Source of the DNA: Folioceros fuciformis
Taxonomy: Eukaryota
Direction of reading: 5' to 3'
Assembly: GCA_049999805.1 (NCBI GenBank)
Contig: JBNGIO010006162.1
Span: 1 to 54,524, forward strand
Length of the DNA stretch: 54,524 nt
Below are positions 16,901-53,407 of this stretch, piece by piece. The notes beneath the pieces are model-generated. The model was not told where the DNA came from, searched no databases, and was given only the letters and a program-made list of their open reading frames with translations. Position numbers and translations under genes: made by a program. Position 1 is the first letter of the stretch, and each line of letters starts with the position of its first letter.

Positions 16901-17246
16901 CAACGTGCAGGTGGGACGCCATGCTTTCGATGAAGCAATGAAGCTGGACGGACAGGATGCTGCAGCTTATTTGTTGATGTTGAACATCTACACCGCTGCC
17001 CAGATGTGGGAGCAGGTGCAAGAGATCCAGGCTAGGAGGACGGGAAGCGGGGCTCAGAAACAACCAGGACAATGCTGGTGGACAGACATGGACGGAGTCG
17101 TTCACAGTTTTTTGGTGCAGAATAGGAAGATCCCAAAACTGGATATATCTGGAAGACTACTTCAGCTAACTTCCAAAACGCTGGAGATATGGGTATGCGT
17201 AGGACATCGGGACTTGTCATCGCAGGTACTGTACCAAATTCGGTGA
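13923..17246 (+). CDS. PLS-class PPR protein with E1-E2 and a WW-type PG box but no deaminase core (E+-like organellar RNA editing specificity factor)
   Basis: Repeating P/L/S motifs (VVTWNAMIAGYSQQG, SVTFVCLLQACA, LVDMYAKCGSLEDA), then HYTCMVDLMGRAG, VWHTLLGACRKW and KQPGQCWWTDMDGVVHSFLV, followed by divergent sequence. Many L motifs carry a 2-aa extension (GAPALE). True start and transit peptide are uncertain. Confidence 0.9.
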   Translation: MTALARAVVCGRGLNDDDVTKLCHQERLAEAVEALGVFVQTESWISTALFYSVLKKCVGKRDLVLGRLVHALTVWKGYGSDTFLCNHFLRMYAAHGSLEEAMDVFTGVAGPDVFMWSSMISAHVKYGQDTQALELYHGMRRSSVKPDGFVFVAALKACARGADLENGQRVHADVLASELEGNLFVCSSLVDMYAKCGSLEDARRVFDEVDEKDVVLWNAMIAGYSQQGMGQEVLGLYNVMQEEGTAAPDAVTFSCILQACATIGAPALEQGKQLHAQIEDHGYDREVLVANSLINMYVKCGILDEARTVFDGLVGKDVVTWNAMLAGYAQQGMGQETLGLFSAMEKEVRVAPDSVTFVCLLQACACLGIPGLEKGKQIHARIHEQGLQGNVFVASSLLDMYAKCGSVEDARVVFDGLGEKNVVTWSAMIAGYSQQGMGQGALLLYRAMQEEGMVAPDAVTFVSLLQACASVGAPALEEGRHLHAQIREGGFDAEVSVAGTLVDMYAKCGSIEDAQALLKGISEKDVVTRSTKGSELDTFLCNRILQMCASHARLQEIMDVFTMVANPDAFAWSAVISAHVKHGLNREAIELYHEMCRSSVHPNGRVFVAALQACASSADLKSGQQVHADLLSSGVEPDLFVCSCLVDMYAKCCSLEEAQNVFDRLPEKDLVTWSTMITGYSQHGMGQEALGLYSSMLEDGISELDSVTFVCLLQACACVGDQGLDMGRQLHAQIREQGLQADVFVASSLINMYGKCGSIEDARNVFDRASQKNVVMWNAMIAGYAQQGMEQETLGLYRAMQQEGLITPDSVTFVCLLLACASLAALHLGRQLHSHIEQHGLQADVTLVHSLINMYAKSGSMVDAQQVFESQPTRVDRSWNALIAGYTHQGDSFAVFDLLHRMKKDGIPPTGITFLSVLTVCSHAGLVNKGLDYFSTMSSEYGISPTAEHYTCMVDLMGRAGELDDALALVRTMPTLPDPAVWHTLLGACRKWNNVQVGRHAFDEAMKLDGQDAAAYLLMLNIYTAAQMWEQVQEIQARRTGSGAQKQPGQCWWTDMDGVVHSFLVQNRKIPKLDISGRLLQLTSKTLEIWVCVGHRDLSSQVLYQIR

Positions 17247-19855: not shown

Positions 19856-20896
19856 CTACGTCCCGCCCAGAAACCTGGATTTGGGCTTGATGGACAGCAG
19901 CGGCATCTTGTCCTCCTCCATCTTCTCAAAGCCCTGCCCAAGCCCCAGCTCCTGGTCATCCACGTTCTTAGCAGGAGGAGGAGGAGGAACCCGGGCAGGC
20001 GAGCTGGTGGACTGCTGATACATCACACCCCCTACAAGCGTGAGTAGCAGGTACACGAGACCCACATTGCTGGCGTGCTTGTCCCAGATCAGCACATTGA
20101 TGATGACGGTCAGGAACTTGTTCACCACCCCGGTGACAGTGAACGCAGTGGCGGAGAGTGCCCTCCTGGCCGCAAATCCAAAGAAGCTGATCGCCAGGCC
20201 GAAGAGACAAGACAAAGCCACGGACAGCACCATCTGAAACCCAGGCTGAGCAGATCCCCGGACGCCCCACATCTCCCCGGTGACTATGGCGAAGATGGGC
20301 GACAGCAGCAGGGACAGCAGGTTGTTGTAGTACACGAAGCCCCAGGTGTTGAGCCCCAGGTTGGACACCATGTGCTTGATGTACACCATTTCGGCGGTAA
20401 TCACCACCAGGTACGCCACAGCCCAGGCATAGGCAGTTACTGTGAATGCAGAGTCGGTGAGGACGTAGCCCACAGCACCCCCCACAATGACAAGCAGCGC
20501 CACGAAAGTTCCTCTCGACGGAAGCGCTTGCTTCCGGAACAGGGTGTCCGCCATGGCCACCAGCAGGGGAGTGGAGGAGCGGAAGACGATGAAGGTGTCC
20601 ACATTCGCGTGCTTCAACAGGTTGGTGTTGGTGAAGATAGCGAGGTAGAAGACGACGGCGGCTGGGAAAAATTGCCTCGCCGTTTCCCACCGGAAGGGGT
20701 CGTGGTGCAGGAAGCCCAGACTCCCCAGACCCAGCACGCCCACCACGCTGCTGAGGTACTGAAGAGCCGTCAGGAAGCTGGGGAAGGGGAAGAAGGTGAT
20801 GGCGTACTTGTTTATCACGGCCAGCAAGCTAGAGCAGAGCGCGTAGCCGACCACCACAGGGACCACAGCGTACCCCTTCCCCTCAACCTGGGTCAT
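19856..20896 (-). CDS. GFT1: Golgi GDP-sugar transporter, GFT1/GONST4-like; intronless
   Basis: GYALCSSLLAVINK, LTALQY, FYLAIFTNTNLLKHANVDTFIVFRS, EMVYIKHMV, YNNLLSL and SATAFTVTGVVNKFLTV. Start taken at MTQVEG (20896); in-frame upstream Mets exist up to 21109. Confidence 0.9.
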   Translation of the reverse strand: MTQVEGKGYAVVPVVVGYALCSSLLAVINKYAITFFPFPSFLTALQYLSSVVGVLGLGSLGFLHHDPFRWETARQFFPAAVVFYLAIFTNTNLLKHANVDTFIVFRSSTPLLVAMADTLFRKQALPSRGTFVALLVIVGGAVGYVLTDSAFTVTAYAWAVAYLVVITAEMVYIKHMVSNLGLNTWGFVYYNNLLSLLLSPIFAIVTGEMWGVRGSAQPGFQMVLSVALSCLFGLAISFFGFAARRALSATAFTVTGVVNKFLTVIINVLIWDKHASNVGLVYLLLTLVGGVMYQQSTSSPARVPPPPPAKNVDDQELGLGQGFEKMEEDKMPLLSIKPKSRFLGGT

Positions 20897-23459
20897 GGCG
20901 TCTGCTCCTCTTCCTCCTGCTCCTGCTCCAGCTACCGCTGCTGCAGCAGGAGCTCTGGACTGATGGGAATCCGAGTCTCCCGTTTCTTGCTCAGCGTCTT
21001 CCCGCATTGTGTTTCTCATTAATGGCCTTGAAGTTGGAGCTGGCGATGTAGGTCGTTGCATAACCCCGCACCCCAGCACGTTCTTCTTGCATCTTGGCTC
21101 TCTCCGCACATGTTGGCCCTCGAGCTGTCAACTGCCGGGCTGCCATGGCCATGGAAAGCGACACTTTTAGCATCCCCGTATTGGCATTCATTTCTCTGCA
21201 TTTCTCCCATTTACTGCAAATCTTTGACTTGAAGTTACAAATGACAACAGTGCCAAAATCTCGGGCGGGCAACAGTTGGCACTCGGCAATCCCCCATTCT
21301 TGCCCGGCCAAGTTTTGCTCGAGGTGGAAATTGGATTTCTTTATTATATCCTGGCACTAGGTTCTTGATCCACAACGGCTGGTGGCATGGGACTGGCTGC
21401 CTCCTCGAATCTATGCATGTCGAGCCGATGCAATGCGTGCTGCATCTTCTTGGATGTTATACGAGCAGCCCTGCTTCGTTTGGGAGTAGAAGGCCATCCC
21501 TCATGTCCCGTCATTCCCCTCTGCCAGGCGGATGCGATTTCCAAGATGAGACGTCTCAGGGCAAGTCGATTAGGCAGTGAGTGTACACAGGGTGGAACTC
21601 GACACCATCTTTGTCCCTTTCAGACTCTTGGAATCCCGTTCTTACGAAAAAGTGAGGTTCGAGTCTACCATGTCTGCTCCCACAGTGGAGCCCCAGCGTT
21701 GCGGAAAATGTCCTGGTTGGATGTCGTCCCCCACTGCGGGAGAACTCGTCGAGGATTAACGTGCCGCGACGCCGCTAACATACCTCTTGATCGGCAGGAT
21801 CTGGCCTCTCATCTCCGCCGTTTGTGGCTTCCAAGCAAATCACGTCAATCTGAATCCACCAGAACATTCTTCTCATACTGCGCATTAGGTGATCGCAAAT
21901 GTCTCCGGATGTTACAACACACGATATGGAGAAACCTTGGCCAATACCGCCTGCCTCGGACTCCATATGACAAGACGAGGTAAGAACAACCTCATCCCGG
22001 TCCTGGTTGCCCTACAGGGACGTACGCTAAACCCTAATCCCAGCCCGCAACAGCAGAGCTCGGAGCGTACTCTCGAAAGACGGGGCCGACGCGAGGCTCA
22101 CAGCTGTGCAGGTACTTTAGAGCTCCCTCTCCCTTCCTTGGTCTGGTCTGCAAAACGAACTCCAGTCTGGATGGGACTTAAGGGCATCAATGTACAGTGC
22201 TTGCCCTCTGCGAAAATCGGAGCCACAGGGTACGGGGGGCATGTTTGTCTGCAGAGTGCAGGAATGGTATACTGTATCCCTGCCGAAGTTACCAGAGGAG
22301 ACCGCCAAGCTGCCAGAGAAGACATCGGTTGCAGTAACATTAACGAGCCACGAGAAGGAGGCGCGACATGAATACGTTGCGTGAGGAGGCAATCTGTGCG
22401 TTGCATGCAGAGCAGCAGAAGAATCTATATTTACGTCAGCCAATGCGTTGGTGCACATCTGCTTCCCTCAAAGATAGCGACACGTTCGTCTACCTCTGCT
22501 CTCCTGTTTTCCCCCTCATCACTATCCGCATCCTACCTTTTGCTGCCAGATCACCGCAGCGCCAAGGCTGCAGTGTGCCAGTAAAGAAAAGGAGCCAATC
22601 TTGTGCTTTGAGGAGCTCATCGTCTGTTTCCAGACAATATTATAATCTGTGTGCCATATATGGTTCAGCTCAATGCGGCGCCAGCGCAGTTTCAATGGAG
22701 AAAATGGTTCAGCTCAATGAGGCGCCTGCACAGTTTTCATTGGAGAGTATGAGGACCGCCGCGTCGTCGAGCATGGATCATTATTTTGGTATTTTTATAC
22801 TTTTTAGAACTCTGAAATTTGGCTCCAAAATCTTCTACGTCTCTTTCAATCGGCTACCGCAACATTCCAGCCCTCGTGTCTTTTACTTCAACTCTGGCCT
22901 CCTATCTTGTTGTCCAGATCTCAGTTCTGCTAATGCATCCCTTGTTTCTTCCTTTCTTATGGCACTTAAACATCCCTTGTTTTTTCCTTTCTTATGGCAC
23001 TTAAAGCGTCCTACACTTGACTCCTTGCTCACCATTCGGAAGCATTTCCAGTGCGCCATGTCTGCAGACTATACACTCTGCTTGATGTTCTTCTCTCCAA
23101 TGGACTATTCGAGAGAAGACCAGAAGAAGAAGCTACTCACCTAGCTTTAAGATAGGAGTTGCAGCAGAAAGTTTGGGTAGCAACTTTGAGGTTTCACAAA
23201 CCTGAAAATGAAAGCTCAAAGTTCCTATCTAGAAGAGAAGAGGCAAGAGTCCTTCGCAAGGATGAGTCTGTTTGTTTGTGTTGGACAAAAGAGACGGGAT
23301 TTTGGGATCTCACTTTGGTAATGTGGAGAGACACGGGCAGTTCAATCACAAGCAAACAACTTCGTGCAAGTTCAAGACCCCTCTCTTCCAAAAGAAGTTG
23401 TTATGAATATATAAGTTGAGGCCTCCGCAAGGAAGGAAGCATGTGCATATAGAAAGCAT

Positions 23460-38100: not shown

Positions 38101-40281
38101 GAGGAGTCGAAGGCACTACTCAGAAGTAACATAAGCAGACTCTGCTCCCGCTCGATATAGCATACGCCTGAAATCTTCTGCACCAAAGTATTCCGTCTTG
38201 CCCTCTGCGAAATGTTTTACCCTGAAAGCGGCGGCAGTGCTAGCAGAAATGCCATGTACGTCTTTGTCCCGATGCCTCCCCTGCAAGACCAGAAAACTTG
38301 TATTGTGGCATCTCCAAAACTTTCAGAGGCATCCTCACCGTGATAATACTCACAGAATCTAACCCGGGAGGGCCACCAAAGTACTCCTGCATCCCCCTGC
38401 AAGTTTTGGTGGGTTTTTCGGAAAAGGATGTTACTCGTCGAACTTGCTTCCCTGGAACAGAGTCCCTGCAGAGTGATGTCCCCTGATTGAAACTGCTTTC
38501 TGATTCAGGCTTCAGTTCTGGTTGCGGAACCTCAAAAGCATGCATTTACAAAGAACAGAATTAACCTCAAGTTCAAGCAGGAACGTGGCAAAAGGCACAC
38601 CTCTGGAGACGAGGACTTCTGAAAGCAGTCGTCACCCTTTGCTGAGGAGACACAGGGCTGTTCTGCCTCGGAGCCATAAATCCAGAAGCTCCTTTGCCCT
38701 TCTCCAGACCGGCTTTCTCCCGGCCAGGCACATAGGACTCTCCTCCTTTGTTTTGAAGTACACATTTATTCTTAGATGCACTATCGGTCTCCTTTCCACC
38801 TTCTTGCAATGCCTCCACTTCCTTCTCGGTATTCTTACAAAAGCTTCCACCTGCGTCTGCTCCCCTGGTGTCATACTGTCTTCCCTGTGCTGAACTTTCC
38901 AGCAGCTCTTCTGCCTGCCTAACGGCCGACTCAGAAACCTGATATTTTCGACAGCTGAAAGAGTCGCCACGTCGGGTGGCGGTCTCACTGTCTAGAAGAG
39001 GCGGTATGGGATCTCTTCTTTCCAAAACAGCTTCTGCCCTCCTCACAGCCGAGTCTGGCAGGGCTGCGAAGGGACACGAAATGCCATACTTAGCTGCATT
39101 TGCCGAGGCATCCAAAAGCCCTTCAGCCATTCTGACAGCCGACTCTGAAACCTGGATCCTGTGGGGATTTACGGTTACAGCTTTGCTCTGCATGCAAGGG
39201 GGAGGCTCCGCACTGCATCTCTCTTCCAAGAGAGCCTCAGCTTTTCTCAAGGCTGCAATCGGTACAGCAAATCTCTGCCATGCTGGACCAGAGGAAGCAT
39301 CCACTTCCTCCGCTGCTAACGAAACTGCAGTTTTCGGGACCAAAGTGCCTGCAGATGTGAACCGTCTGACTGCAGGATCGACTGCCCGGATTTCCTTCCT
39401 CGCAGCAATATCAAGAGAACGCATCGTAGCTGAAGCAATATTGGGAGAAGCTGAAATATTAGCAGTCCCTAGCGGCATTCCATCGCCACCTGCGAATAAA
39501 TCCCTTGCTCTACTGACAGAAACTGCATCAAGGACAACTGGCTTCCCAGAGGCAGTTTGAAACAAGGAGGCTGCTCCTGCAAGCTCAAGATCTGCTGCTG
39601 TTGGGTCTGCTGCAAAATCTGAAGTCCCCATTGGCGTTCCATCGTTTTCTACCAGCAAATCCTTTGCTCTGTTAATGGAAAGTGCATCAAGTGCAACTGC
39701 CTTCCCCGAGGCAGTCTGAAACAAAGAAGTTGCTCCTGCAAACTCAAGCCCTGTAACCAAATGCATCACTTAATCTGAAGTCCAATCCTGTTCATGACAT
39801 CCAGCTTCATCAACCAGGGGGCCCTGAGGAAACGACTTACCAGGTTTCACCATATTGCTTGGTCTTCGTTTTCTTGCAGCCAAGGAGGCACATGCATCTT
39901 CAGGACGAACTCTGGCCTCTGCAATTCTATCTATTGTGACGCTGTGAGCAGAGCAGAGGGCTCTCCGCTTGTAACACATACGAAAGCCAGCTTCGAACAC
40001 ACAGGAAAAGCATGCAGCCAAGTTTGTGAAACCCAGAGCACCACACCTGGACACATATCTGAATGATCCGCATTGTCTGTGTTCAGAGCTCTATTCGAAT
40101 CAATGCTGCGAAGGAAATCAGCAAGCGGAGGCAGGAACGGCACTCCAGATTGCTCCACCTGCACCGCCTGGCTGGCGACGGATTCACCTTTGACAAGACT
40201 CCACTTCCCGTCCTCAGGATCTCCTGATCGCACCACAGACCATGTCCGTGCAATCTTTGATTTCCAAATTGCGTCCTGCAT
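35183..40281 (-). CDS. BRCA2: BRCA2 recombination mediator, multi-exon (not all junctions resolved)
   Basis: Plant-type N-terminus RTWSV...GKWSLV...LPPLADFL; BRC repeats LFQTASGKAV and LFQTASGKPV; AFRSPR; EYFGGPP; helical/OB1 motifs WVTNHYKWIIWKLASYER, RYHREY..GHRSALKRITE, VEVTDGWY and LFVGQKLR. Last exon 35230-35183 ends in TAG. Confidence 0.93.
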
Positions 40282-40530
40282 TGGTCCTTCCTAGCCAGCA
40301 ATCGCCTCAGCTTGCAGAATTTTCCTGGTCAGACAATTCGCCTGGCTACTGGAGATCAAGCTCTTTTTCCCGCCCTTTAACATTGAATCAAGCTCGAGTG
40401 AAGTTGAGCACGGAATTGCCGACGTGTTATCCGGACACCTTGAAGGTGTATCTAATTTATTTTACTAGCATCTGAAGATTCCCGGCTTACCCTGTGCGGG
40501 GATGAGATGATCGGGGAGTGCTTGCAAGCT

Positions 40531-40712
40531 GGTGGGTCGTGAACCCCTTAAAAGGTGGTGGATCGTGAAGCCAGTCCGAAAGGTGGTGGAGTGCGAATCT
40601 CATCCAAGTTGGTGGGTCGTGAAGCTCTTCCTATTGGGTGGATAGTGAACCCTCCCTCCCTATGTTGTGGTGGATCCCGGAGTCCGTTCATACGGTGGAT
40701 CATGAAGCCCGT
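40531..40712. repeat. Seven degenerate GGTGGRTCGTGAA units at ~25-32-bp spacing between the divergent BRCA2 and PPR-DYW starts
   Basis: Units start at 40531, 40557, 40585, 40611, 40637, 40669 and 40694. Confidence 0.75.
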
Positions 40713-40877
40713 CCTATGGGCACCGTCCAAAGGGTAGCAAGCTGGGGAGAAAAGCTGTGCAGTATAGCAACTTTTGATTTTCGTGATGGGACTCGATGCA
40801 GAGAGATCTGTCTCCCAACAATCCGGTGAGGTAGGGACACTCAGCAGCGTGCATGGTTGTGCTTAAGGAAGGTTCGC

Positions 40878-43766
40878 ATGGCGATGCAGCAGCCTCCACA
40901 GCTGAAAACAATTTCACACAGTCCGAGCTTGTTGTCAGCCAAACCAAGCTCTGCTCGGGTATTTGGAGGGTTTGTGCTCCACAATAGCTCAGGTGGCGCA
41001 GCCAGGGACTGCAAAAATGGAGGAGTTTCCTTATCAGGCACCAATCCCACTGAAGCATTGACCCAGAGTGAGCGGCAGGAGATCTTGTGGCAGCACTTCT
41101 TCTCAAAGCCCTCGGACTGGTGGGACAACAGAGCGGGTAAGAGAAGCTCCCGCCATCCTGACTTCAGGAGCAAGTCCTCCAAGGAGGCCCTGTGGCTCGA
41201 TAATTACCACAAGCCTGCCTGGGTGGATTCGCAGCTGGCCAGGGGGCTTGGTGTTGCTGAAGAAGGATCAGCAAATAGGGACAGCAACGGTCTGGAGCTG
41301 TCCAGCCGGGATGTGCCGATGAGAGGAAACAATATTGCAGAACAAGATATGTTGATCCGGCGTTGCGAGGAGGCAGAGCTGAGTGAGGCTGTTGACGCTT
41401 TGGAGACCCTGGTGGATAGGGAATGTCACATCGGCCGCGGGATTGTCTTCCGTGTTCTGAAGAGGTGCATGACAAGGAAAGATCTTGATTGCGGAAGGCG
41501 TGTGCATGCACTTGCCCTCAGAAAGGGGTTTGGGTCACATGCCTTCTTGGCCAATCACATTATTTGTATGTATGCTGGACATGGAAAGCTAGAGGACGCA
41601 CTGAAGGCCTTCAGGAATGTGGCTGTGCCTGATGCTTACATGTGGTCTTCCATCATCCTGGCGCATGCTCGGCACGGCCAGCCAATCCAGGCCATCAACT
41701 TCTATCGACAGATGCGAGGTTCAGGTGTTAAGGCAGACGGTCATATCTTCGTAGCAGCTCTGAAGGCATGTGCCTCTGCAGGGGACCTGGATCTGGGCAA
41801 GGAGGTCCATGCCGACATAGAGGCCAGTGCTGCCAAGGCTGATTTCTTTGTTGGCAGCAGCCTGGTGAACATGTACGTAAAATGCGGCAGCTTGGATGAT
41901 GCTCGCAGTGTGTTTGACAGCTTGCCTCGGAGGGACGTGGTGACCTGGACCACCATGATTGCTGGGTATTGCCAGCAGGAGAATGGGCAAGAAGCCTTAG
42001 CCTTGTATGCAAACATGGAACGTGAGGGCATCACTCCGGCGGACAGTTTTATATTTGTTCGGCTTATTCAAGCATGTGCAAATGTAGGAGCCCATCAGCA
42101 GGGAAAGCAACTTCACTTAAAGGTGCGTGATAGAGGTCTCATTGGCGACGTGTTCGTTGGCAGCTCGTTGGTCCACATGTATGCGAAATGTGGTTTATTG
42201 GAAGAAGCCCGGAAAGTGTTTGACAGCTTGCCCAGGAAAGATGTGGTGACATGGACTACCATGATCGCAGCATACAGTCAGAAGGGTCTTGGACAAGAAG
42301 CTCTAGACTTGTATGCAAATATGCAAAAAGAGGGCATTACTCCAGCTGATAGTGTTACATTTTTGTGCCTTCTTCAGGCATGTGCAAGTGTAGGATCCCT
42401 GCAGCAAGGGAAGCAGCTCCATTTGCAGATCCGGGAACGCCGGCTTGAAAATGATGCTGCCATTCCAAGCAGCCTGGTGAATATGTATGCTAAATGCGGG
42501 AGCTTAGAAGATGCCCGCAACGTGTTTGACACCTTGCCTAGAAAGAATGTGGGTACCTGGAATGCCATGATAGCAGGGTATGTCCAAAATGGCCTTGGGC
42601 GGGAAGCTCTATCTCTTTATGCAAGCATGCAGCATGAGGGCATTGCTCTTGGTGATCAGGTGACTTTTGTATGCATGCTTCAAGCATGTGCCAGTGTAGG
42701 AGCGCTGGATCAAGGTAAGCAGATTCACTCACAGATACGTGCTGGAGGTTTTGAAGGTGACACAAGGATTGGCAGCTGCTTGGTGGACATGTACTCAAAG
42801 TGTGGGAGTTTGGCTGACGCCCGTAACGTCTTTGACGAATTGCCTTCAAGGAATTTGGTTACATGGACGGCAATGATTAAGGCCTACGCAGAACATAGTG
42901 ACGGTAACATGGCGATCTGCTGCTTTGAAGACATGCTGCAGCAAGGTGTTCAGCCAGATGAGACCACATTTACGTGTCTCCTTGCTGCATGCGGTCACAT
43001 GGCCATGGTAAAGGAGGGCCAACGTTATTTCAGGATGATGGTCGAGGACCATGGAATCGTGCCCAGTGAATATCATCATAGTTGCATGGCTGATCTTCTT
43101 GGCCGGTCAGGTCAATTGAACGAGGCTGAACACCTGTTGCGAACAACGGCATTGAATGATGTTGTGGGTTGGACAGCTTTGCTGAGTGCTTGTAAAAACC
43201 ACGGTGATGTAGAGCGCGGAGAAAGGTGTTTCGACCATCTTGTGAAGCTAGAACCCGAGAATGCGAGTCCATACGTGATGTTGGGGAACATCTATGCGAA
43301 TGCTGGGAGGTGGGACGATGTAGATAAGACAGAACTCCGAAGAAAGGCAGCTGGTGCTTTGAAAAAGGCTGCAAAGGCCTGTATTGAAGTGAAGTACCAG
43401 GTGCATGAGTTTAAAGTAGGGGAAGAGCGGTCTGACATCTCCCCAACGCTGAGGAGCGTGAATTCGAGATTGAAGGAGGAAGGGGGCCATGTACCCCAAA
43501 CACAGCTGGTGCTGAAGGGAGTGACTGAGCAGGAGAAGGAAGCTGAGCTATGTGGACACGCTGAAAAATTGGCTTTGGCCTACGGTTTGCTAAACACACC
43601 CGAAGGCACACCTTTGGTGGTGACCAAAAACCTTCGCATGTGCCATGACTGCCACAGTAGTACCAAAATCATGTCAAGTCTCGAGAAGCGTGAAATTGTA
43701 GTAAGAGACGGGCATCGTGTACATCGATTTATGAACGGATCCTGTTCATGTGCAGACAGGCACTGA
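40878..43766 (+). CDS. PDF-motif + PLS-PPR + E1-E2 + DYW:KP (DRH-type) protein; candidate U-to-C organellar RNA editing factor
   Basis: About 17 PLS motifs; KKAAKACIEV in place of the PG box; CGHAEKLA; NLRMCHDCH; ends CSCADRH. N-terminal WWDNRAGKRSSRHPDFRSK...LW...PAWV. First in-frame ATG is at 40878. Confidence 0.93.
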   Translation: MAMQQPPQLKTISHSPSLLSAKPSSARVFGGFVLHNSSGGAARDCKNGGVSLSGTNPTEALTQSERQEILWQHFFSKPSDWWDNRAGKRSSRHPDFRSKSSKEALWLDNYHKPAWVDSQLARGLGVAEEGSANRDSNGLELSSRDVPMRGNNIAEQDMLIRRCEEAELSEAVDALETLVDRECHIGRGIVFRVLKRCMTRKDLDCGRRVHALALRKGFGSHAFLANHIICMYAGHGKLEDALKAFRNVAVPDAYMWSSIILAHARHGQPIQAINFYRQMRGSGVKADGHIFVAALKACASAGDLDLGKEVHADIEASAAKADFFVGSSLVNMYVKCGSLDDARSVFDSLPRRDVVTWTTMIAGYCQQENGQEALALYANMEREGITPADSFIFVRLIQACANVGAHQQGKQLHLKVRDRGLIGDVFVGSSLVHMYAKCGLLEEARKVFDSLPRKDVVTWTTMIAAYSQKGLGQEALDLYANMQKEGITPADSVTFLCLLQACASVGSLQQGKQLHLQIRERRLENDAAIPSSLVNMYAKCGSLEDARNVFDTLPRKNVGTWNAMIAGYVQNGLGREALSLYASMQHEGIALGDQVTFVCMLQACASVGALDQGKQIHSQIRAGGFEGDTRIGSCLVDMYSKCGSLADARNVFDELPSRNLVTWTAMIKAYAEHSDGNMAICCFEDMLQQGVQPDETTFTCLLAACGHMAMVKEGQRYFRMMVEDHGIVPSEYHHSCMADLLGRSGQLNEAEHLLRTTALNDVVGWTALLSACKNHGDVERGERCFDHLVKLEPENASPYVMLGNIYANAGRWDDVDKTELRRKAAGALKKAAKACIEVKYQVHEFKVGEERSDISPTLRSVNSRLKEEGGHVPQTQLVLKGVTEQEKEAELCGHAEKLALAYGLLNTPEGTPLVVTKNLRMCHDCHSSTKIMSSLEKREIVVRDGHRVHRFMNGSCSCADRH

Positions 43767-44634
43767 TATTCCCTTGCCTTATCCTATTGGCGAACAACTC
43801 ATCATATAGATCCACTTCAAAACCATTTAAGTCTAACTCCCCAGCTAGCAACTTTCTGCCTAACAAAGAAAGAGTACGAAGCAATGGCTGCAATTCCAGG
43901 GCCCTGTGATGATGGAACCACTGAATCCGCGTGAAGAGACAGCAATCTACTACTGCACGAGAAAGCAGATATGAATCAAAAGCTCAGAAGAAATTCGCTG
44001 GCCCAGTTTCCGCAGCGTGCAATATCAATTAGCAGGTAGCCAGTAAACATAGAAGTCAATTGGGAAAAACTTGCAATCATTAAATGCCACAAAGTGCACA
44101 ATGACGCAGGGGCAGTTCACCTGGCAAGGGAGTACGATTGGTGGCGTGATTGTACTTGCTCCTTACTCTTCCGGACTCCAGCCCTTCAATGTAGCGTGCT
44201 TCTCACAACTGAAAATTACACTCTGGTAAGGGACCACCTTAGGACAAACCTGTTGTGCAGACGGTCAGTCACTCTTAGAGACACGGAGCTCACCTCGGTT
44301 TTCTTGCAGATGGCCTGATGCTTCCCAGCACCCACGCTGGCTCCACAGCTACTGATATGGGCAGTGAGGACTGGAGCTGTGGAAGCCCATCGTTTGCGCC
44401 ATGGAAGACGTGGTAGGGCAAGGGCAGGGGAAATAAATTTTGCCAGAAGAAACCACAAAAAAACCGTGTCTTGCATCCTTGTTCTCGGAAGTGCAAGTTG
44501 GGATTCACAGCTACATGACGCAATGGCGAACTGGATCAAAGGGAATCGCTTCAGTCGCAAAGGCAAAAACAAGCTGGCCATGCTGCTGCAGCACTAATCA
44601 CGCCAACCGAGATACCTCCACTCCCCCAAAGCTG

Positions 44635-47103
44635 TCAATTCCGATCTCTACATGAGCAAGACCCCTCTACAAATCGATGCACACAATGTGCATCTCTCAC
44701 AATGATCTCTCGCTTCTCAAGGCGTGACATAACCTTGGTGCTGCTGTGACAATCAGTGCACATGCGGAGATTTTTCGTGACCAGCAAAGTTGAGCCATCT
44801 GGCGTGTTCAGCAGACCATACGCCAAAGCCAGTTTCTCCGCATGCCCACACAGAGCATCCTCCTTGTCTTGCTCAGACAAGGCCTTCAGCACCAACCGCG
44901 TTTGTGGAACGTGGCCTCCTTCATCCTTCAACCTCATGTTCACTGTTTTCAGCTTTGGTGAGATGTCGGACCTCTCATCCCCGACTGTGAACTCATGCAC
45001 CTCATTCTTAACTTCAATGCATGCCTTTGCAGCCTTCTTCAAAGCACCGGTTGATTTTCTTAGATTTTCAATCCTATCCACATCATCCCACCTACCTAAA
45101 TTCGCATAGATATTCCCCAGCATTACGTATGGGCTTGCACTTTCAGGTTCTAAGTTCACAATACGTTCAAAACATCGTTTCCCACGCTCTATATCACTAT
45201 GTGTTTGGCAAGCACTGAGCAAAGACGTCCACCCCACAATATCATTTGCAGATCTGGTTCGCAAAAAATGTTCAGCCTCGTCCAGTTGGCCGGATCGGGC
45301 AAGAAGATCAACCATGCAACCATGGTGATAAGCAGTGGGAACTATCTTGTGGTCCTCCACCATCCTTGCGAAATAATGCTGGCCCTCATGCACCAGACCT
45401 GCGTGACTGCATGCCACAAGAAGGCAGGTAAAGGTTGTCTCGTCTGGCTGAACACCCTGAAGTACCATGTCCTCAAAACACCGGATTGCACTGTGTCCAT
45501 CACTGTGTTCAGCATATCCATTCAGGAGGGCATTCCATGTCACCGCATCCCTCCTGGGCAAGCTGGCAAACACATCTTTAGCCTGCGTTAGCCAGCCACA
45601 TTTTGCATACATGTCAACCAAAGAGCTGCCGATGAACAAATCACCCTCAAGACCTGCGGCACGTATCCGTGAGTGAAGCTGCTGCCCCTGCTCTATTGCT
45701 CCTACACTGGCACATGCTTGAAGAATGGCCACAAAAGTCAAATTATTAGCCACAGTGATGCCTTCCTGTTGCATCATACCATACAAGGCCAGGGCTTCCC
45801 GTCCTAGCCCATGTTGAGAGTACCCAGCAATCATAGCATTCCAGGTCACCACATCCTTTCTGGGAAAATTGTCAAACGCATGTCGAGCATCGTCAAAGCT
45901 CCCACACTTAGCATACATGTTCACGAGGCTGTTCACGATCAATCCATCACCTTCGAAGCCCCTTTCACGAATCTGCGAGTGAAGCTTCTTCCCCTGCTGT
46001 AGGGCTCCTACACTTGCACATGCCTGAAGAAGGCACACAAACGTGACACGATCACCTACATTCAAGCCCTCCTGTTCCATACTTGCGTACAAAGCGAGAG
46101 CTTCTCGCCCGAGCCCCTGCTTACTATAACCGGCGATCATGGCAGTCCAGGTCACCACATTTCTCTTGGTCAAGCTGTCAAACACCCTCCGAGCATCATC
46201 CAAGCTGCCACATTTCGCATACATATTCACCAGGCTGCTCCCTACGAAAATGTCACCCTTCACAGCACTCGCCCTAACATGAGCATGGACCTCCTTTCCC
46301 GACGCCAGGTCCTCTGAAAAAGCACACGCCGTGAGAGCAGCCACGAAGATATGGCTATCTGCCTCTACACCTGAACCCCGCATCTGTCGATAGAACTCCA
46401 TGGCCTTCCCCGGCTGCCCGTGCCTGGCATGTGCCAGAATTATGGAAGACCACATGTGCACACTCGGCATGGCCACTTTCCTGAATGCCCGAGCTGCGTC
46501 ATCCAACTTCCCATGCCACGCATACATCCCAATAATGTGATTAGCCAGAAAGGCATTGGAACCGTGCCCGCTCACGAGGGCGAGATAGTGCACCCGCCTG
46601 CCATAGGAAAGATCTCTGTGCACCATGCATCTCTTCAAAACACGGTAAAAGAGAGTGCGGCCCACACGACATCCCCGCTCCACCAGAAGGCCCAAAGCGT
46701 CAACCGCCTCACCCAGCTCTGCTTCTTCGCATTGCTTGCTCAGAGCCTCAACCATTGGACTCTCATGTGCATCATCTGCTCCTGCGCCGTAGGCCCCGGC
46801 CAACTGCGAGTCCAACCAGGCGGGCTTCTGATGCTGGTCGATCCACAGTGGCTCCTTAGAGGTCTTGTGCCTGAAGTCGGGATGATTGGAGCTTTTCTTG
46901 CCCGCCCTGTTGTCCCACCAGTCAGAGGGATTCGAGACGAGGTCGTTCCGCAGGAGCTCCTGCCGCTCTTTCTGCGTCATTCCTTGAGGGACAGGAGTCC
47001 CGACTCGAGGAGCACACATTCCTGAGCTCTCTGGACCGCCGTTGCGGTTGCCAAGAACGCATTCCGCGGTCCTCCAGACACAGGTTGGCTTGGGCGACAA
47101 CAT
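44635..47103 (-). CDS. PDF-motif + PLS-PPR + E1-E2 + DYW:KP (DRN-ending) protein; inverted paralogue of 40878-43766
   Basis: About 14 PLS motifs; KKAAKACIEV, CGHAEKLA, NLRMCTDCH; ends CSCRDRN. Carries WWDNRAGKKSSNHPDFRHK. First in-frame ATG is at 47103; the open frame extends to 47376. Confidence 0.92.
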   Translation of the reverse strand: MLSPKPTCVWRTAECVLGNRNGGPESSGMCAPRVGTPVPQGMTQKERQELLRNDLVSNPSDWWDNRAGKKSSNHPDFRHKTSKEPLWIDQHQKPAWLDSQLAGAYGAGADDAHESPMVEALSKQCEEAELGEAVDALGLLVERGCRVGRTLFYRVLKRCMVHRDLSYGRRVHYLALVSGHGSNAFLANHIIGMYAWHGKLDDAARAFRKVAMPSVHMWSSIILAHARHGQPGKAMEFYRQMRGSGVEADSHIFVAALTACAFSEDLASGKEVHAHVRASAVKGDIFVGSSLVNMYAKCGSLDDARRVFDSLTKRNVVTWTAMIAGYSKQGLGREALALYASMEQEGLNVGDRVTFVCLLQACASVGALQQGKKLHSQIRERGFEGDGLIVNSLVNMYAKCGSFDDARHAFDNFPRKDVVTWNAMIAGYSQHGLGREALALYGMMQQEGITVANNLTFVAILQACASVGAIEQGQQLHSRIRAAGLEGDLFIGSSLVDMYAKCGWLTQAKDVFASLPRRDAVTWNALLNGYAEHSDGHSAIRCFEDMVLQGVQPDETTFTCLLVACSHAGLVHEGQHYFARMVEDHKIVPTAYHHGCMVDLLARSGQLDEAEHFLRTRSANDIVGWTSLLSACQTHSDIERGKRCFERIVNLEPESASPYVMLGNIYANLGRWDDVDRIENLRKSTGALKKAAKACIEVKNEVHEFTVGDERSDISPKLKTVNMRLKDEGGHVPQTRLVLKALSEQDKEDALCGHAEKLALAYGLLNTPDGSTLLVTKNLRMCTDCHSSTKVMSRLEKREIIVRDAHCVHRFVEGSCSCRDRN

Positions 47104-48777: not shown

Positions 48778-49072
48778 TGACAAGTGCGAGCGTTCACGGA
48801 AGCTGGTAAGCGTATGAATAAACGAATGAATGAGACGTCGTTGTCTTGGACACCCAAGAGTCGTGTCCTGACGGTTAGGGTTTTTGCTAACCTACGACCT
48901 GTACAGCTAGCATATACTGTCACTCCCACTCATGTCTAGAGTTAGGATGTGTATAAATTGTCATATTTATATATAATTAAATGCTGAATGCTATGAAACG
49001 TAAAATCTAACAAGAAACCTGATAACCCGCCAAGAAACTCGTCAGCCCAAAGCGGGTATCGGCATCATGTCA
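48778..49072 (-). repeat. 3' LTR, 295 bp
   Basis: Near-identical to 54322-54524; TGACA/TGTCA termini; purine-rich AGCTGGGAACGTGAAGAT precedes it on the minus strand. Confidence 0.92.
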
Positions 49073-52000
49073 ATCTTCACGTTCCCAGCTTACTCTTCGA
49101 TTCGCAGCTGTGCTCCACTTCAAAGGATTACCGGCTGACCTTAGGCCCATGGCAGCTGCATGTTCGTAATGCTTGATGCGTCCCAAAGCCTTTGTCAGGA
49201 TGTCTGCAGTCATGACTTCTGTAGGGCAGTAGGAAATCCTTACCAGACCTTGAGCTACAGTCTCACGAATGTAATGATGTTCGATTCCAATGTGTTTGGT
49301 CCTTGCGTGAAAGCGAGGGTTCATTGTTAACGCAATTGCACTCTGATTATCGCACAACAGGTCTATCAGCAGCTCCTGTGGTATGCCGAGCTCCCTTAGT
49401 GCTCCCACTGACCAAGTGATTTCCTTGCACGCTTCCGTTAAACTCTTGTATTCCGCTTCCGTAGATGATAGTGCAATTGTAGATTGCTTTTTACTACTCC
49501 AAGAAATTGCACCACCAGCTAAGATTGTCACATAGCTACTAATGCTCTTGCGGCTGTCTGGGTCTCCACCCCAGTTAGCGTCACTATAGACTGTTAAATG
49601 CAGAACCTTCTTTGCCTTTGAGCTATACAAAATTCCCCAATCTGTTGTTCCAGAAATGTACCTATAGACCCTTGTCATCAGGTCCTCATGAGTTCTGTTG
49701 GGGTTTGAAACAAACCGTGAAGTCAGTCCGGAGGTAAAGGCAAGATCAGGCCTGCTTCCTATCATCAAATGCATCAGGCTTCCATTCTTTAAAGGATACA
49801 ATTCAACATATTGAGCGTCCTCTTCAGGTATATCTCCAACTTGCTGTGTATACTTGACATTTTGCTCTACTGGAGTCGCAACAGGCTTGCAGCCAATCAT
49901 GCCATATCTTTCTAAAATTTCCAAGGCATATTTACGTTGGTGCAGGAAAATAGTTCCCGCACCACGATTTCTATGTAGTTGCATGCCCAGGCAGTAGGCA
50001 AGTGCACCAGCTTCTGTAGTCTTCAAAGCTCTTCTCAAGTGCTCCTTTAATTCAAATATCATGCGTAGAGAGTTGTTGAGGATGATTATATCATCCACAT
50101 AAATGGCAAGTGCCAAGAAATCTTTACTTTCTCCTTTTACGTAGACATTGCTGTCAGCATGTAAGCCTTCATATCCAAGATCTGTCAAGTATGTGTGAAT
50201 TCTTTCATACCATGCTCGGGGGCTTTGTTTAAGCCCATACAAAGTCTTCTGGAGCTTACATACTGGACGAGGCACATTTGGAGGCACTGCGACTCTGGCT
50301 GGAACTTGCATGAAAATCTCCTCGTGCAGGTTCCCATACAAAAATGCTATAGTTACGTCTAGCTGCTCCAGCTCAAGATTATTCACTGCAGCTAGTGCTA
50401 CAAACATGCGCAGGGTATTCAGCTTCACTACAAGACTGAACGTATCATCGTAGTCCACTCCAGGTATTTGCGAATACCCTTTTGCAACCAACCTTGCCTT
50501 GTAACGCCCAATGCTCCCATCTGCCTTCAGCCTTATCTTAAAAACCCACTTGCTGCCAACTTGTTTCCTATCTGCAGGAAGGCTGACTATTGTCCAAGTG
50601 TGGTTTTCATATAGAGATGCCAACTCTGATTGAATGGCCTTGTACCAATGCTCAGCATCAGGACAGCTGAGGGCTGCTTCATAGGTTGGAGGTTCATACA
50701 GCACAGCGTTGGCGGCTAAACAGTAAGTCAGATGTGACTTGGGATACCAGAAATCCTCTGACGCATACCGTGCTGGTGGTCTACGCGACCTCTGTGACTG
50801 CCGAGGCTCAGGAGTAGCATGTTGAGCCGTCCTTCTGTGCTGTCCATCTGGTGAGGCGGACGGGATCACTGTCTCTGTCTCCTCAAAACTCAACGACCCA
50901 GCTGAAGGTGTAGCTTGTAAATTTCGGCTACTAATCGTGCGTCCAGGTGTCCGCATCGGTGTCTGGAGAGTCGGTGACTGTGGTCCCGGGGGTATTGCTG
51001 GTGCCACTGGTGGTACAGGCACGATAGGCGCGGCAGGAAGAGGAACTCGGAGTTCTCCGACCATCATCTCCGCCTCCTCTTCTGTGGAGCCATCGTCGGA
51101 GCTTGAAGGATCCAGCAACGGTGCTCCCACTGGCTGTTGAGACTCCACGCCTTCGACAAACACCACATCCCGTGAATGGGTAACTACCCTCGTTCTTCTG
51201 TTCAGGACCTTATACCCCTTGATTCCTTCAGTGAACCCAATAAAAATACAGTGAGTTGACTTGGGTTCAAACTTCTTGCGCAGGTCCTTGTGGATGTGAG
51301 TATACACCGACGAGCCAAACACACGAAGATGCGAAAGATTGGGCTTCCTGCCTGTCCACAATTCGTAAGGAGTCTTTCCCTTAACTGATTTATGTGCTAT
51401 CCTGTTCTGAATGTAGGTAGCATAACTTACTGCCTCTGCCCAGTATGCTATTGGCAAGTTTGCATAATGAAGCATACTGGAAGCGAATGTCTCCAAAGAC
51501 TGATTTTTATTCTCAGAAACCCCATTTTGCTGTGGGGTATGGGCATTCGTCAATTGCCTACCTATGCCATGCTGTATGCAAAATGCATAAAATTCCTGGG
51601 AGACATACTCTCCGCCATTATAAGACCGCAGGTTTTTCAGACGACGGCCAGTTTGGGTCTCAGCCCATGTCTTGTACTCTTTGAAGCATGCAAGAGTATC
51701 TGATTTCTGCTTCAGAAAATACACTACGCAAAAGCGTGTGTAGTCGTCAGTAAAAATGGTAAAATACTCCTTCCCTCCAAGAGAAACCGGGAGTTTTCCA
51801 CATACATCACTGTGGACTAGCCCTAAGATCTCCGTTGCTCGTGTTGCTTGACCCACAGGGAAAGACGTACGCTTGTGTTTACCTAGTACACAAGCTTCGC
51901 ATACTCCAAATTTCTGCAGATTATCAAGATTGATACCTTCCACCAGCTTATCCTTGTACATAGTCACAAGCTTCTGAAAATTGATATGACCCAGGCGAAG

Positions 52001-53407
52001 ATGCCATAGGTACGTAAGAGAGGGCTTGGAATAGTGTGTGAAGTCCGCAACGGAGAGTGCCTTTTCTTCCTTCATGTCGAGATGATAAAGATCGTCCTTC
52101 TGCAGGTGCCCAGTGGCCAAGAGGGTGCCATCCTTCGACTCAACGAGACACTTGCCGTCTCCAAAACACACATAACAGCCCGACTGATCCATCTTCCGAA
52201 CTGAAACTAGGTTCTTTGCCAGTCCGGGTACGTAAAGCACATCTGAAATTTCTATGTGCTTATTGGGTTTCAAATCAAGTTGAATGGTTCCCTGACCAGC
52301 AATTTCATACTGGGAATTGTCTCCTAAGCACACAAATTTGGCAGGTGTGCTTTCCTTCAACTCTGTAAAATATGTAGCATGGGGGGTCATATGCTGCGAG
52401 GCTCCGCTGTCTATATACCAAGTGTGTTCAGGATGGCTGGCAAAGCAAGTGACCACATTGCAATGATGGAAGTTGTGATCTCGAGATGAGTTCACTGTGG
52501 TGTCATGAATGACACTTGTAAAGAATGCCTTGCTGTATTTTTGCATGGTCACTGCTAGATGCCCTGAAGGTCCACCTTCTCCAGCCAGTCTCTTGCAGCA
52601 GACTTCCCAGGTATGATTTGTCATGCCGCAATGCCCACATGGGGGCTTGCCTCTGCCACCACCAAAGCTAAGAGGCCTAGAGTCACGGCCTCAGCCCCTG
52701 CCAAATGGACGTCCTCGTCCACGACCTCTTCCAAGTTTGCCCGTCCAAAGAGCCTTGTCTCCTCCTAGAGAAAGAGAGGTATTTGCTATTTTCCTTCTTG
52801 ACTCTTCTGTTAACATTGCTGCTATCACTCGATTAACTGTGATGGATGGTACATCCTGCAGGCCTTGTATCACACTAGACCAAGTTTCTGGCAGTGTAGT
52901 AAGAAGAATTACTGCAAGGAGCTCCTCCTCCAATGCGAAACCTGCAGAAACCAACTTGGCTCGCGAATTGCGAAACTCAAGTACATGTTTATCCACAGAA
53001 TCTGTTTCTTTCATCTTGAGGCCCATGAACTGTTTTAACACAAAAGTTTGCAGCATGAGGTCCCTCGAGTCGTACAAGTCTTTTACTTGTCTCCACCAGG
53101 CAGCAGCAGTTTCTTCAGCTCCCTGAAACACGCCAGTGTGGGTGCTCTTGACACTAAAGTGAAGAAGTGTCCGAGCTTGCTGGTCATTCTCCACCCAGCG
53201 GGCCAACTCTTCTGGTGTAGCAGCAGCACCAGGTTTGGGTGTAGGCACGGGAGGTGTGCCTACACCATGGACATGTGCCCATAATTTTCTAGATTTCAGT
53301 ATTTCTTGCATACTCTTCTGCCATACATGATAATTTTCACCATCAAACTTGTCTTCCTTGGGTATTTTTATGGCAGGAACTTGTGAAATGGTCTGCTGAT
53401 GACCCAT
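49070..53407 (-). pseudogene. Copia gag-pol polyprotein interrupted by one in-frame TGA
   Basis: Gag KFDGENYHVW...ILLTTLPETW; TGA at 52693-52691, then the same frame continues CGHCGMTNHTWEVC, WYIDSGAS, LWHLRLGH, LVHSDVCG, TPQQNG, YKARLVAKG, LYGLKQSPRAW, YVDD and RTKHI. Confidence 0.93.

Follow-up and report, generated by a model that had tools for sequence, protein, structure and literature searches.

Two convergent PPR genes carrying a PDF motif

The window, which is the whole stretch of 54,524 nucleotides of Folioceros fuciformis analysed here (contig JBNGIO010006162.1), contains two convergent genes that combine a PDF motif with PPR repeats, E motifs and a DYW:KP domain. Gene 1 (40878–43766, forward strand) is an intronless ORF of 962 amino acids, with an in-frame stop 18 codons 5' of its ATG, in which a leader, the PDF motif, a linker, the PPR array, the E motifs and a DYW:KP domain of the DRH type follow one another. 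The initial annotation had placed the motif at 41088–41237 (residues 71–120), between leader and PPR array in one ORF with an intact DRH domain, and the 962-residue ORF and its Pfam matches confirm this arrangement.

All parts of gene 1 lie on the forward strand. Of the 61 residues of the leader (40878–41060, residues 1–61), 2 are acidic, 5 are basic and 26 are S, T, A or G, a transit-peptide-like composition. It is followed by the PDF motif (41061–41243, residues 62–122), where HPDF occupies residues 94–97 inside a conserved block of about 55–60 residues, and by a linker that is not conserved, about 36 residues long (41244–41351, residues 123–158). The PLS-type PPR array (41352–43199, approximately residues 159–774, with approximate boundaries) is recognised by the Pfam families PPR, PPR_1, PPR_2 and PPR_3. 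The E motif region (43200–43364, approximately residues 775–829) corresponds to Pfam PF20431 E_motif at residues 775–830 (51.8 bits). The last 133 residues form the DYW:KP domain (43365–43763), with a KKAAKA box, HAE at positions 65–67 of the domain, Lys at 88, CxxC (CHDC) at 93–96 and the terminal DRH; Pfam DYW_deaminase matches residues 870–960 with 118 bits.

Gene 2 (44635–47103, reverse strand) encodes 822 amino acids in the same PDF-PPR-E-DYW:KP order, shows 52–62% identity to gene 1 and ends in DRN. Its last 133 residues hold HAE at 65–67, Lys88 and CTDC at 93–96, and Pfam identified PPR families, E_motif (53.3 bits) and DYW_deaminase (114 bits). The PDF motif of gene 2 (46798–46980, reverse strand, residues 42–102) was recovered with the gene 1 motif by tblastn at an E-value of 3.5e-27. 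This second copy is absent from the initial annotation. Searches of all six frames by tblastn and regular expression found exactly two copies in the window, those of genes 1 and 2; the PG/WW-type PPR ORFs at 11806–13059 and 13923–17246 have no motif, as had been stated for the WW-type PPRs of the window.

Contigs of sequencing run X1, presumed to derive from RNA, lie between about 40522 and about 47180; no RNA run is on file as containing the locus. One is identical to the window and unbroken across 40522–42269, at gene 1, and another joins 44121–44208 to 44294–46035 with zero mismatches, skipping the 85 nucleotides at 44209–44293. Since the skipped stretch, read on the minus strand, begins with GT and ends with AG, it is likely a 3'-UTR intron of gene 2. 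The unbroken cover and the GT..AG skip suggest transcription. The motif region of gene 2 is also covered by contigs of three other organisms with approximately 92–94% identity, in which the sole length change listed is a 3-nucleotide deletion at 46986. A scan of the intergenic stretch for promoters and terminators of bacterial type, with models unsuited to a eukaryotic locus, returned nothing.

Identity, fold and conservation of the motif

To compare the motif with that of the OSB proteins, we used a profile made exclusively from OSB sequences (201 motif copies from 78 SSB-domain proteins), from which the window and all PPR-borne copies were excluded. This profile matched the gene 1 motif with 67.5 bits (E = 3.4e-14) and the gene 2 motif with 63.2 bits (E = 7.3e-13), both calculated for Z = 1.84e9 sequences. 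As a sequence match, that of gene 1 is far above chance, and it bears out the initial reading of the stretch as the OSB PDF motif. We therefore regard the stretch in genes 1 and 2 as, almost certainly, a true OSB-type PDF motif.

A second profile, built from three PPR-borne copies, detected 945 representative proteins among the 1.84e9 sequences with E ≤ 1e-3; for 351 of them E was at most 1e-10. An OSB-type OB domain is present in 78 of the best 150 of these 945 matches. These 78 proteins carry 1–6 motif copies each (at least two in 71 proteins and one in 7), and in 77 of them all copies are C-terminal to the OB domain. Pfam SSB (PF00436) scored above cut-off in five of the ten matches examined (P0026, P0044, P0012, P0139 and P0011), and P0044 groups with Atlas clusters whose automatic names are 'protein OSB1, mitochondrial-like' and 'protein OSB2, chloroplastic-like'. 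Proteins P0002–P0008 consist almost entirely of PDF motifs, with 6–13 tandem copies, and some of them have no detectable OB fold.

The motif, about 50 residues long, is the same in the OSB proteins and the window proteins and has identical invariant positions in both, among them WWDNR, PDF, LW and P.W; twelve invariant columns (P, W, D, R, K, P, D, F, W, P, W and L) are common to the OSB-type and PPR-type copies. The PPR-borne copies mostly group among themselves and show KP.WVD in place of the NP.WV.SQL of the OSB copies. The architectures differ: in OSB proteins an SSB-like OB fold precedes a C-terminal PDF motif, whereas in the window proteins the motif lies N-terminally, ahead of the PPR repeats, and Pfam reports PPR, E and DYW families and no SSB/OB domain. 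The window proteins are therefore carriers of the OSB motif and not OSB proteins. In OSB-like genomic loci, moreover, each motif is split over two exons, while the window motif is intronless. A metagenome scan gave eight loci, of which L001, L002, L004, L005 and, more weakly, L003 resemble intron-split OSB-like genes; PPR similarity was absent from all eight.

Other searches with the motif were less productive. Pfam gave no match for the gene 1 motif (77 residues) and one sub-threshold match, to DUF7167, for that of gene 2. Word-index protein searches returned P0001 as the sole true match (one of 29 candidates, then one of two), the ESM Atlas gave no usable match, and the PDB sequence search found nothing significant, its best row being the N-terminus of CP29 at E = 0.07. 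Since the PDF motif has no Pfam model, surveys of PPR domain architecture based on Pfam would miss it.

The AlphaFold2 model of the gene 1 motif (pLDDT 83.2, pTM 0.70) contains a helix at 9–22, strands at 27–29 and 42–44 and a helix at 61–67, and pLDDT falls below 50 immediately past the motif, in the linker. As modelled, the PDF motif is a compact, independently folding helix/strand mini-domain. Foldseek found no match to this model in the PDB at E ≤ 0.001, and in a VIA-align comparison with 48,161 chains the highest Z was 3.2, with no chain at Z ≥ 5. The absence of a structural match is not evidence of a new fold; since the model resembles no solved structure, the fold adds no independent hint of nucleic-acid binding.

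The comparison of the two genes revealed that the motif has been conserved between diverging flanks. In the motif 42 of 61 residues are identical, with dN of 0.185 and dN/dS of 0.31, and the start of the PPR array shows a dN of 0.216. The leader has 12 identical residues among 40 aligned (dN 0.60), and the linker could be aligned over 17 codons with two gaps, 3 of them identical (dN about 1.0). These substitution rates show the motif under purifying selection approximately equal to that on the PPR start, with the flanks drifting.

Class and distribution of PDF-bearing PPR proteins

By their sequence, genes 1 and 2 belong among the DYW:KP proteins to the DRH subgroup, which is of hornwort type. 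Gene 1 has in common with the hornwort PPR-DYW:KP proteins of this subgroup the PLS array, the E motifs, the 133-residue DYW domain with HAE, Lys88 and CxxC, and the DRH end, and the C-terminal 203 residues are 61–73% identical to many DRH/GRP proteins. DRH and GRP are described as hornwort DYW:KP C-terminal subgroups (Gerke 2020 and Gutmann 2020, as cited in PMC9478123), and Lys88 as a conserved active-site lysine of the 132–133-residue DYW domain (PMC11845758). The terminal triplet of gene 2, DRN, differs from that of the subgroup. In both window genes the box reads KKAAKACIEV, with A in place of the P of 'KP', whereas the closest relatives have KKPAKACIEV and PG-type proteins PGxSWIE. Designer KP proteins are reported to perform U-to-C editing in bacteria and human cells (PMC9478123), and by analogy with them U-to-C editing by genes 1 and 2 is predicted at the level of the class. 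The designer editors have no PDF motif and still edit U to C, which counts against a need for it.

Among 33 other KP-type proteins, retrieved via their C-termini, three carry the motif and 30 do not, so that the class can do without the motif. None of 32 PG-type proteins has it, a count that is confounded because seed plants make up most of the named rows of the PG set. The motif also occurs, in one to three copies, in PPR proteins that have no DYW domain, and P0001, with three, has an E motif only; tandem arrangements of two or three copies occur in the PPR proteins P0001, P0063, P0111 and P0113. Some PPR proteins thus show one to three tandem copies, in agreement with the numbers stated for OSBs in reviews. 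The PDF motif is accordingly neither universal in DYW:KP proteins nor exclusive to them. The specific coupling of the motif to DYW:KP proposed in the initial annotation finds no support in these numbers.

Within the KP proteins the motif has persisted in the DRH as well as in the GRP subgroup. Proteins without it include P0151, P0154, P0157, P0163 and P0175, which have long, complete-looking leaders. A non-PPR leader of at least 60 residues was seen by eye in approximately 11 KP proteins, of which three carry the motif and one a relic; a count based on the first PPR landmark, imprecise owing to the repeats, gave 17 proteins with room for a motif and 16 too short for one. The relic, a degenerate motif in the KP protein P0161, suggests that the module may be gained and lost as a unit.

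Possible functions of the motif

In reviews the PDF motif is a stretch of about 50 residues that is marked by a conserved Pro-Asp-Phe signature and follows the SSB-like domain of OSBs on its C-terminal side; reviews and papers call it sufficient for, or responsible for, the ssDNA binding of AtOSB1. In the passages covered, ssDNA binding is the only function reported for the motif. One review states that AtOSB1 and AtOSB2 prefer ssDNA over dsDNA or RNA, so that RNA binding by the PDF motif cannot be assumed. The literature searched contained no link between PDF and PPR or DYW proteins, and the terms 'OSB' and 'single-stranded' do not occur in the text of PMC13386178. Within the literature searched, this agrees with the initial annotation, which knew of no functional study of such a fusion. 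The same annotation suggested a three-part machine that might tether editing to nucleoids, unfold RNA or act on ssDNA, all of them hypotheses. The fusion of the PDF motif with a PPR editing factor is real; both parts are known and the combination is apparently undescribed.

PPR arrays and the RNA they bind run in parallel: the N-terminal repeats contact the 5' nucleotides, and the DYW domain comes to lie at the base to be edited. We think it somewhat more probable than its opposite that the window motif has both the PDF identity and a role as an accessory, non-sequence-specific anchor on single-stranded nucleic acid. The motif would have been shifted from its C-terminal position in OSBs to the N-terminal end of PPR editing factors of the PLS class and would be retained on the mature protein after import. 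There it may grip single-stranded nucleic acid, independently of sequence, on the 5' side of the PPR footprint, which would increase affinity, lengthen the dwell time or prevent the upstream RNA from closing. The ssDNA preference of AtOSB1 and AtOSB2 makes an RNA role not the default expectation, and the 30 KP-type proteins without the motif also count against the anchor.

The accessory anchor would be a helper built into the editing factor itself, in hornworts, the editosomes of which are described as 'primarily PPR and ORRM' (PMC13386178). The anchor shares with MORF/RIP helpers and with the RRM-PPR and RRM-DYW fusions treated there (of the latter, one is mentioned in hornworts and one in angiosperms) the concept of a second, non-PPR module that possibly aids RNA binding. 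The PDF motif differs from the MORF, RIP and RRM modules in fold and family, and its helper role is hypothetical.

The reported preference of OSB1 and OSB2 for ssDNA over RNA favours a reading in which the motif leaves the RNA substrate untouched and binds organellar ssDNA, be it the non-template strand of transcription bubbles, R-loops or replication intermediates; the editing factor would thereby accumulate at the nucleoid, and editing would become co-transcriptional. OSB1 is reported to limit R-loops genetically at mitochondrial repeats, and the flexible, non-conserved linker would let the motif reach away from the RNA. A lone PDF motif may nevertheless bind weakly, because 71 of the 78 OSBs sampled have at least two copies, and most KP editors manage without one; we consider such a nucleoid tether rather unlikely. 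It is unlikely, too, that the motif docks a subset of hornwort-type editing factors on the ssDNA of active nucleoids, for instance at transcription bubbles or R-loops, and physically couples U-to-C, perhaps also C-to-U, editing to transcription, with action of the DYW:KP domain on ssDNA as the extreme version. Taken by itself, the idea that the motif brings the DYW:KP domain to single-stranded organellar DNA, which would be changed instead of or besides RNA, is scarcely credible: its sole support is the origin of the motif in ssDNA-binding proteins, while PPR arrays read RNA, DYW:KP activity has been demonstrated on RNA, the sequence gives no sign of DNA catalysis and most family members do without the motif.

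A different proposal is that the motif recruits OSBs, other PDF proteins or ORRM, or dimerises the editing factors. AtOSB2 is a tetramer according to a review, the nearly all-PDF proteins described above exist, and the conserved Trp/Phe-rich positions could form an interface; set against the reported ssDNA binding, this seems improbable. The patchy occurrence among KP proteins, with three carriers among 33 and the P0161 relic, could also mean that a PPR gene captured the motif once and that it spread by duplication as a passenger, functionless or removed with the presequence. In the tree a single clade takes in 16 of the 23 PPR-borne copies, as one capture would predict, but its support is only 0.60. 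The selection on the motif, which matches that on the PPR start between two drifting flanks, the retention of every invariant OSB position, the persistence in both KP subgroups and the tandem copies in four PPR proteins argue against a passenger and make it very improbable.

If the PDF motif is a single-strand grip, it would represent a naturally occurring accessory by which PPR editing factors adjust their affinity or location, in a lineage that is said to have no MORF helpers, and an obvious part to try on the synthetic U-to-C editors now under engineering. It would also be a portable domain not limited to OSBs, and its study would bear on DNA binding by the OSB proteins, for which our PDB searches found no solved structure.

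Two convergent genes with a PDF motif

Gene 1 occupies 40878..43766 on the forward strand and encodes 962 amino acids, with an in-frame stop 18 codons 5' of its ATG. The motif string quoted in the initial annotation was recovered at 41088-41237 (+), as residues 71-120, and, as that annotation held, it shares one ORF with a PPR array and an intact DYW domain. According to Pfam, PPR repeats fill most of the sequence, with an E motif (775-830) and a DYW deaminase domain (870-960) behind them; the last 133 residues contain HAE (65-67), Lys 88, CHDC (93-96) and a terminal DRH. The PDF domain is real, and a single reading frame joins it to the PPR array and the DYW domain. According to the accessible text of PMC11845758, Lys88 is essential for U-to-C activity, and that of PMC9478123 divides hornwort DYW:KP proteins into DRH and GRP subgroups; the gene 1 protein is of the DRH kind.

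The convergent neighbour, gene 2 (44635..47103, -), encodes 822 amino acids ending in DRN and is a paralogue with 52-62% identity and the same architecture. Six-frame tblastn and a regex scan detected exactly two PDF copies in the 54.5-kb window, so that the single copy first described has to be complemented by a second one in gene 2 (46798-46980, -), which had been missed. The claim that the PG/WW-type PPRs of the window lack the motif was borne out, as the six-frame scan was negative for both ORFs of this type (11806-13059 and 13923-17246, both +). The latter, of 1107 aa, resembles a head-to-tail fusion of two PPR genes, with an N-terminal-like segment beginning anew around residue 520; its reading frame closes shortly behind a PGQCWW box and includes no DYW domain, so this copy may have decayed or undergone a frameshift.

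A 397-aa ORF (38573-39766, -) lies immediately upstream of gene 1. It contains F.TASGK...L units in repeated form, matches PF00634, the Pfam BRCA2 repeat, in two stretches (24.6 bits, cut-off 20.3) and probably represents one exon of a BRCA2-like gene. About 2 kb from the start of gene 2 lies an intact-looking Ty1/copia-type retrotransposon polyprotein ORF of 1184 aa (49070-52624, -; Pfam gag_pre-integrs, rve, RVT_2). An aspartate-kinase-like ORF with AA_kinase and two ACT domains (7907-9661, +) and a triose-phosphate-transporter-family ORF (19856-21061, -) look like ordinary nuclear genes.

Transcription of the locus is suggested by transcript-like contigs of the sequencing run X1, which match the window at 100%. 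One is unbroken over 40522-42269, a span that takes in upstream sequence, the start codon, the motif and the initial PPRs. In another, 44208 is followed directly by 44294 and 85 nt are omitted (44209-44293, -); the omitted stretch has GT..AG borders on the minus strand, lies 3' of the gene 2 stop codon and is likely an intron of a spliced 3' UTR. Since this skip resembles splicing, it suggests that the X1 contigs derive from RNA, which the run record gives only as a guess. X1 contigs tile the whole gap of about 870 nt between the two stop codons. Contigs of three other organisms, at about 92-94% identity, span the gene 2 motif region, where the sole length change listed is a 3-nt deletion at 46986.

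Identity, selection and predicted fold of the motif

Pfam has no model for the PDF motif. A profile from three PPR-borne copies was searched against 1.84 billion representative proteins and gave 945 matches at E <= 1e-3, 351 at E <= 1e-10 and 40 at E <= 1e-30. Among the best 150 of the 945, an iterated local profile detected an OSB-type OB fold in 78, and in 77 of these every motif copy is C-terminal to it. The copy number in the 78 proteins is one in 7, two in 40, three in 19, four in 7, five in 2, six in 2 and 13 in 1. Pfam SSB (PF00436) was above cut-off in 5 of 10 submitted matches, one of which, P0044, adjoins Atlas clusters automatically named 'protein OSB1, mitochondrial-like' and 'protein OSB2, chloroplastic-like'. 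This layout is the OSB architecture described in the accessible text of reviews: a transit peptide, an OB-like domain and one to several 50-residue PDF motifs, which are responsible for ssDNA binding and, in AtOSB1, sufficient for it.

An OSB-only profile of the kind proposed in the initial annotation, built from 201 motif copies of the 78 OB-fold proteins, upheld the OSB-type assignment made there, scoring 67.5 bits (E 3.4e-14) against gene 1 and 63.2 bits (E 7.3e-13) against gene 2, both at Z 1.84e9. In an 18-sequence alignment that includes motif copies of both the OSB and the PPR type, 12 columns never vary (P, W, D, R, K, P, D, F, W, P, W, L). Because of these scores and columns the PDF identification is secure; the window proteins themselves, having no OB fold according to Pfam, are not OSB proteins. 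The second motif half (41180-41240, +; ALWL..(K/R)PAW(V/L)D..L) also resembles the N-terminal segment of the chlorophyll a/b-binding protein CP29 (PDB 8bd3_R, 9hd7_R), a likeness that is not significant (E 0.07-0.09) and is probably due to chance.

The motif is under purifying selection and has a confidently predicted fold. Between the two paralogues, 42 of 61 aligned residues are identical in the motif (dN 0.185, dN/dS 0.31) and 112 of 162 in the PPR start (dN 0.216, dN/dS 0.22), against 12 of 40 in the leader (dN 0.60, dN/dS 0.32) and 3 of 17 in the linker (dN about 1.0, dN/dS not computable). An island as conserved as the PPR start, with flanks drifting on both sides, argues for selection acting on the motif itself, and the variable linker tethers the PDF domain to the first PPR repeat. 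AlphaFold2, run on 77 residues with the 18-sequence alignment, returned a model (pLDDT 83.2, pTM 0.70) with helices at 9-22 and 61-67 and short strands at 27-29 and 42-44, its confidence falling sharply directly after the motif. Neither Foldseek against the PDB nor VIA-align against 48,161 chains (top Z 3.2) gave a convincing match, so the fold search offers no functional hint; this does not prove a new fold.

Distribution and possible origin of the fusion

Ten PPR proteins with one to three N-terminal motif copies were found among the best 150 of the 945 matches (P0001, P0063, P0076, P0093, P0110, P0111, P0113, P0118, P0142 and P0150, the PPR call of P0142 resting on BLAST only), and in three short records (P0104, P0144, P0148) the motif runs into a PPR-like start. 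None of the ten has a detectable DYW domain; P0001 combines three motif copies with a PPR array and, beyond these, has just an E motif, and some of the others may be incomplete records. A search free of N-terminal bias, with a query limited to the last 203 residues of the gene 1 protein, found 68 proteins: 33 KP-type (HAEK site), 32 PG-type (HSE[KR] site) and 3 unclassed. A specific coupling to DYW:KP, as suggested at the outset, was not supported as stated: the motif is present in only 3 of the 33 KP-type proteins, P0152 (DRH), P0160 (GRP) and P0168 (GRP). It is present in 0 of the 32 PG-type ones, a comparison confounded because the named PG-type rows are mostly seed plants. The motif is missing from several KP proteins with long leaders and from three named fern KP proteins (P0184, P0190, P0204). 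Given these counts it is a minority accessory within DYW:KP, occurring in both hornwort subgroups and also on PPR proteins that have no deaminase domain. The KP-type P0161 retains a degenerate trace (DPSQWWYNRS..., residues about 19-37; 5 bits with the OSB-only profile), an apparent decay of the motif within the family.

Of the 23 PPR-borne copies in a tree computed from 416 near-complete motif copies, 16 group together in a single pure clade that contains the two window copies and has a support of only 0.60, a pattern compatible with a single capture followed by spread within the PPR family. At two OSB-like metagenome loci each motif is split in two halves just after WWDNR (370-459 and 817-915 in L001; 1530-1601 and 1942-2040 in L002), which suggests that an intron lies within it. 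The PPR-borne motif of the window, by contrast, is uninterrupted, a difference that would agree with capture by way of a processed transcript or with loss of the intron.

Other architectures were also seen. P0002-P0008 carry 6-13 tandem PDF copies each, with no detectable OB fold in P0003-P0006 and P0008, and with 12 copies before the OB domain and one after it in P0002; the accessible text of the literature searched describes no OSB architecture of this kind. In P0040 (1526 aa), a kinesin motor domain (Pfam Kinesin, 290 bits) comes after three PDF copies; the local OB profile matches this protein too, and gene prediction may have run together an OSB gene and an adjacent kinesin gene.

The PDF-PPR-DYW fusion is apparently undescribed, although its component kinds are already known. 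The accessible article text searched has no co-mention of the PDF motif or domain with DYW; the one text found to join PDF motif or OSB with PPR is a replication review in which PPR is a passing mention, and the string WWDNR occurs only in an unrelated paper. The accessible main text of a 2026 survey of 182 OSB genes does not mention PPR, pentatricopeptide, fusion or Anthoceros, and that of a 2026 survey of editing-factor domain fusions (PMC13386178) does not mention OSB or single-stranded.

Possible role of the PDF domain

A PPR tract and the RNA it binds run parallel, so that the N-terminal repeats contact the 5' nucleotides, and for this reason an N-terminal PDF domain would sit 5' of the PPR footprint. 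We favour the reading that it would serve there as an accessory element that grips single-stranded nucleic acid regardless of sequence. The main rival is that the domain would tether the protein to nucleoid ssDNA; in its favour, the accessible literature reports that OSB1 and OSB2 prefer ssDNA over RNA and links OSB1 genetically to R-loops. Less likely, in our view, are a module for protein interaction, a passenger devoid of function, and a role in directing the editing of DNA.

An essential role of the motif is argued against because most KP proteins do not carry it and because, according to the accessible text on designer KP editors, these function without it. An accessory grip agrees with the editosomes of this lineage, which the accessible text of PMC13386178 describes as PPR plus ORRM, and would raise the affinity of the protein or keep the upstream RNA accessible.
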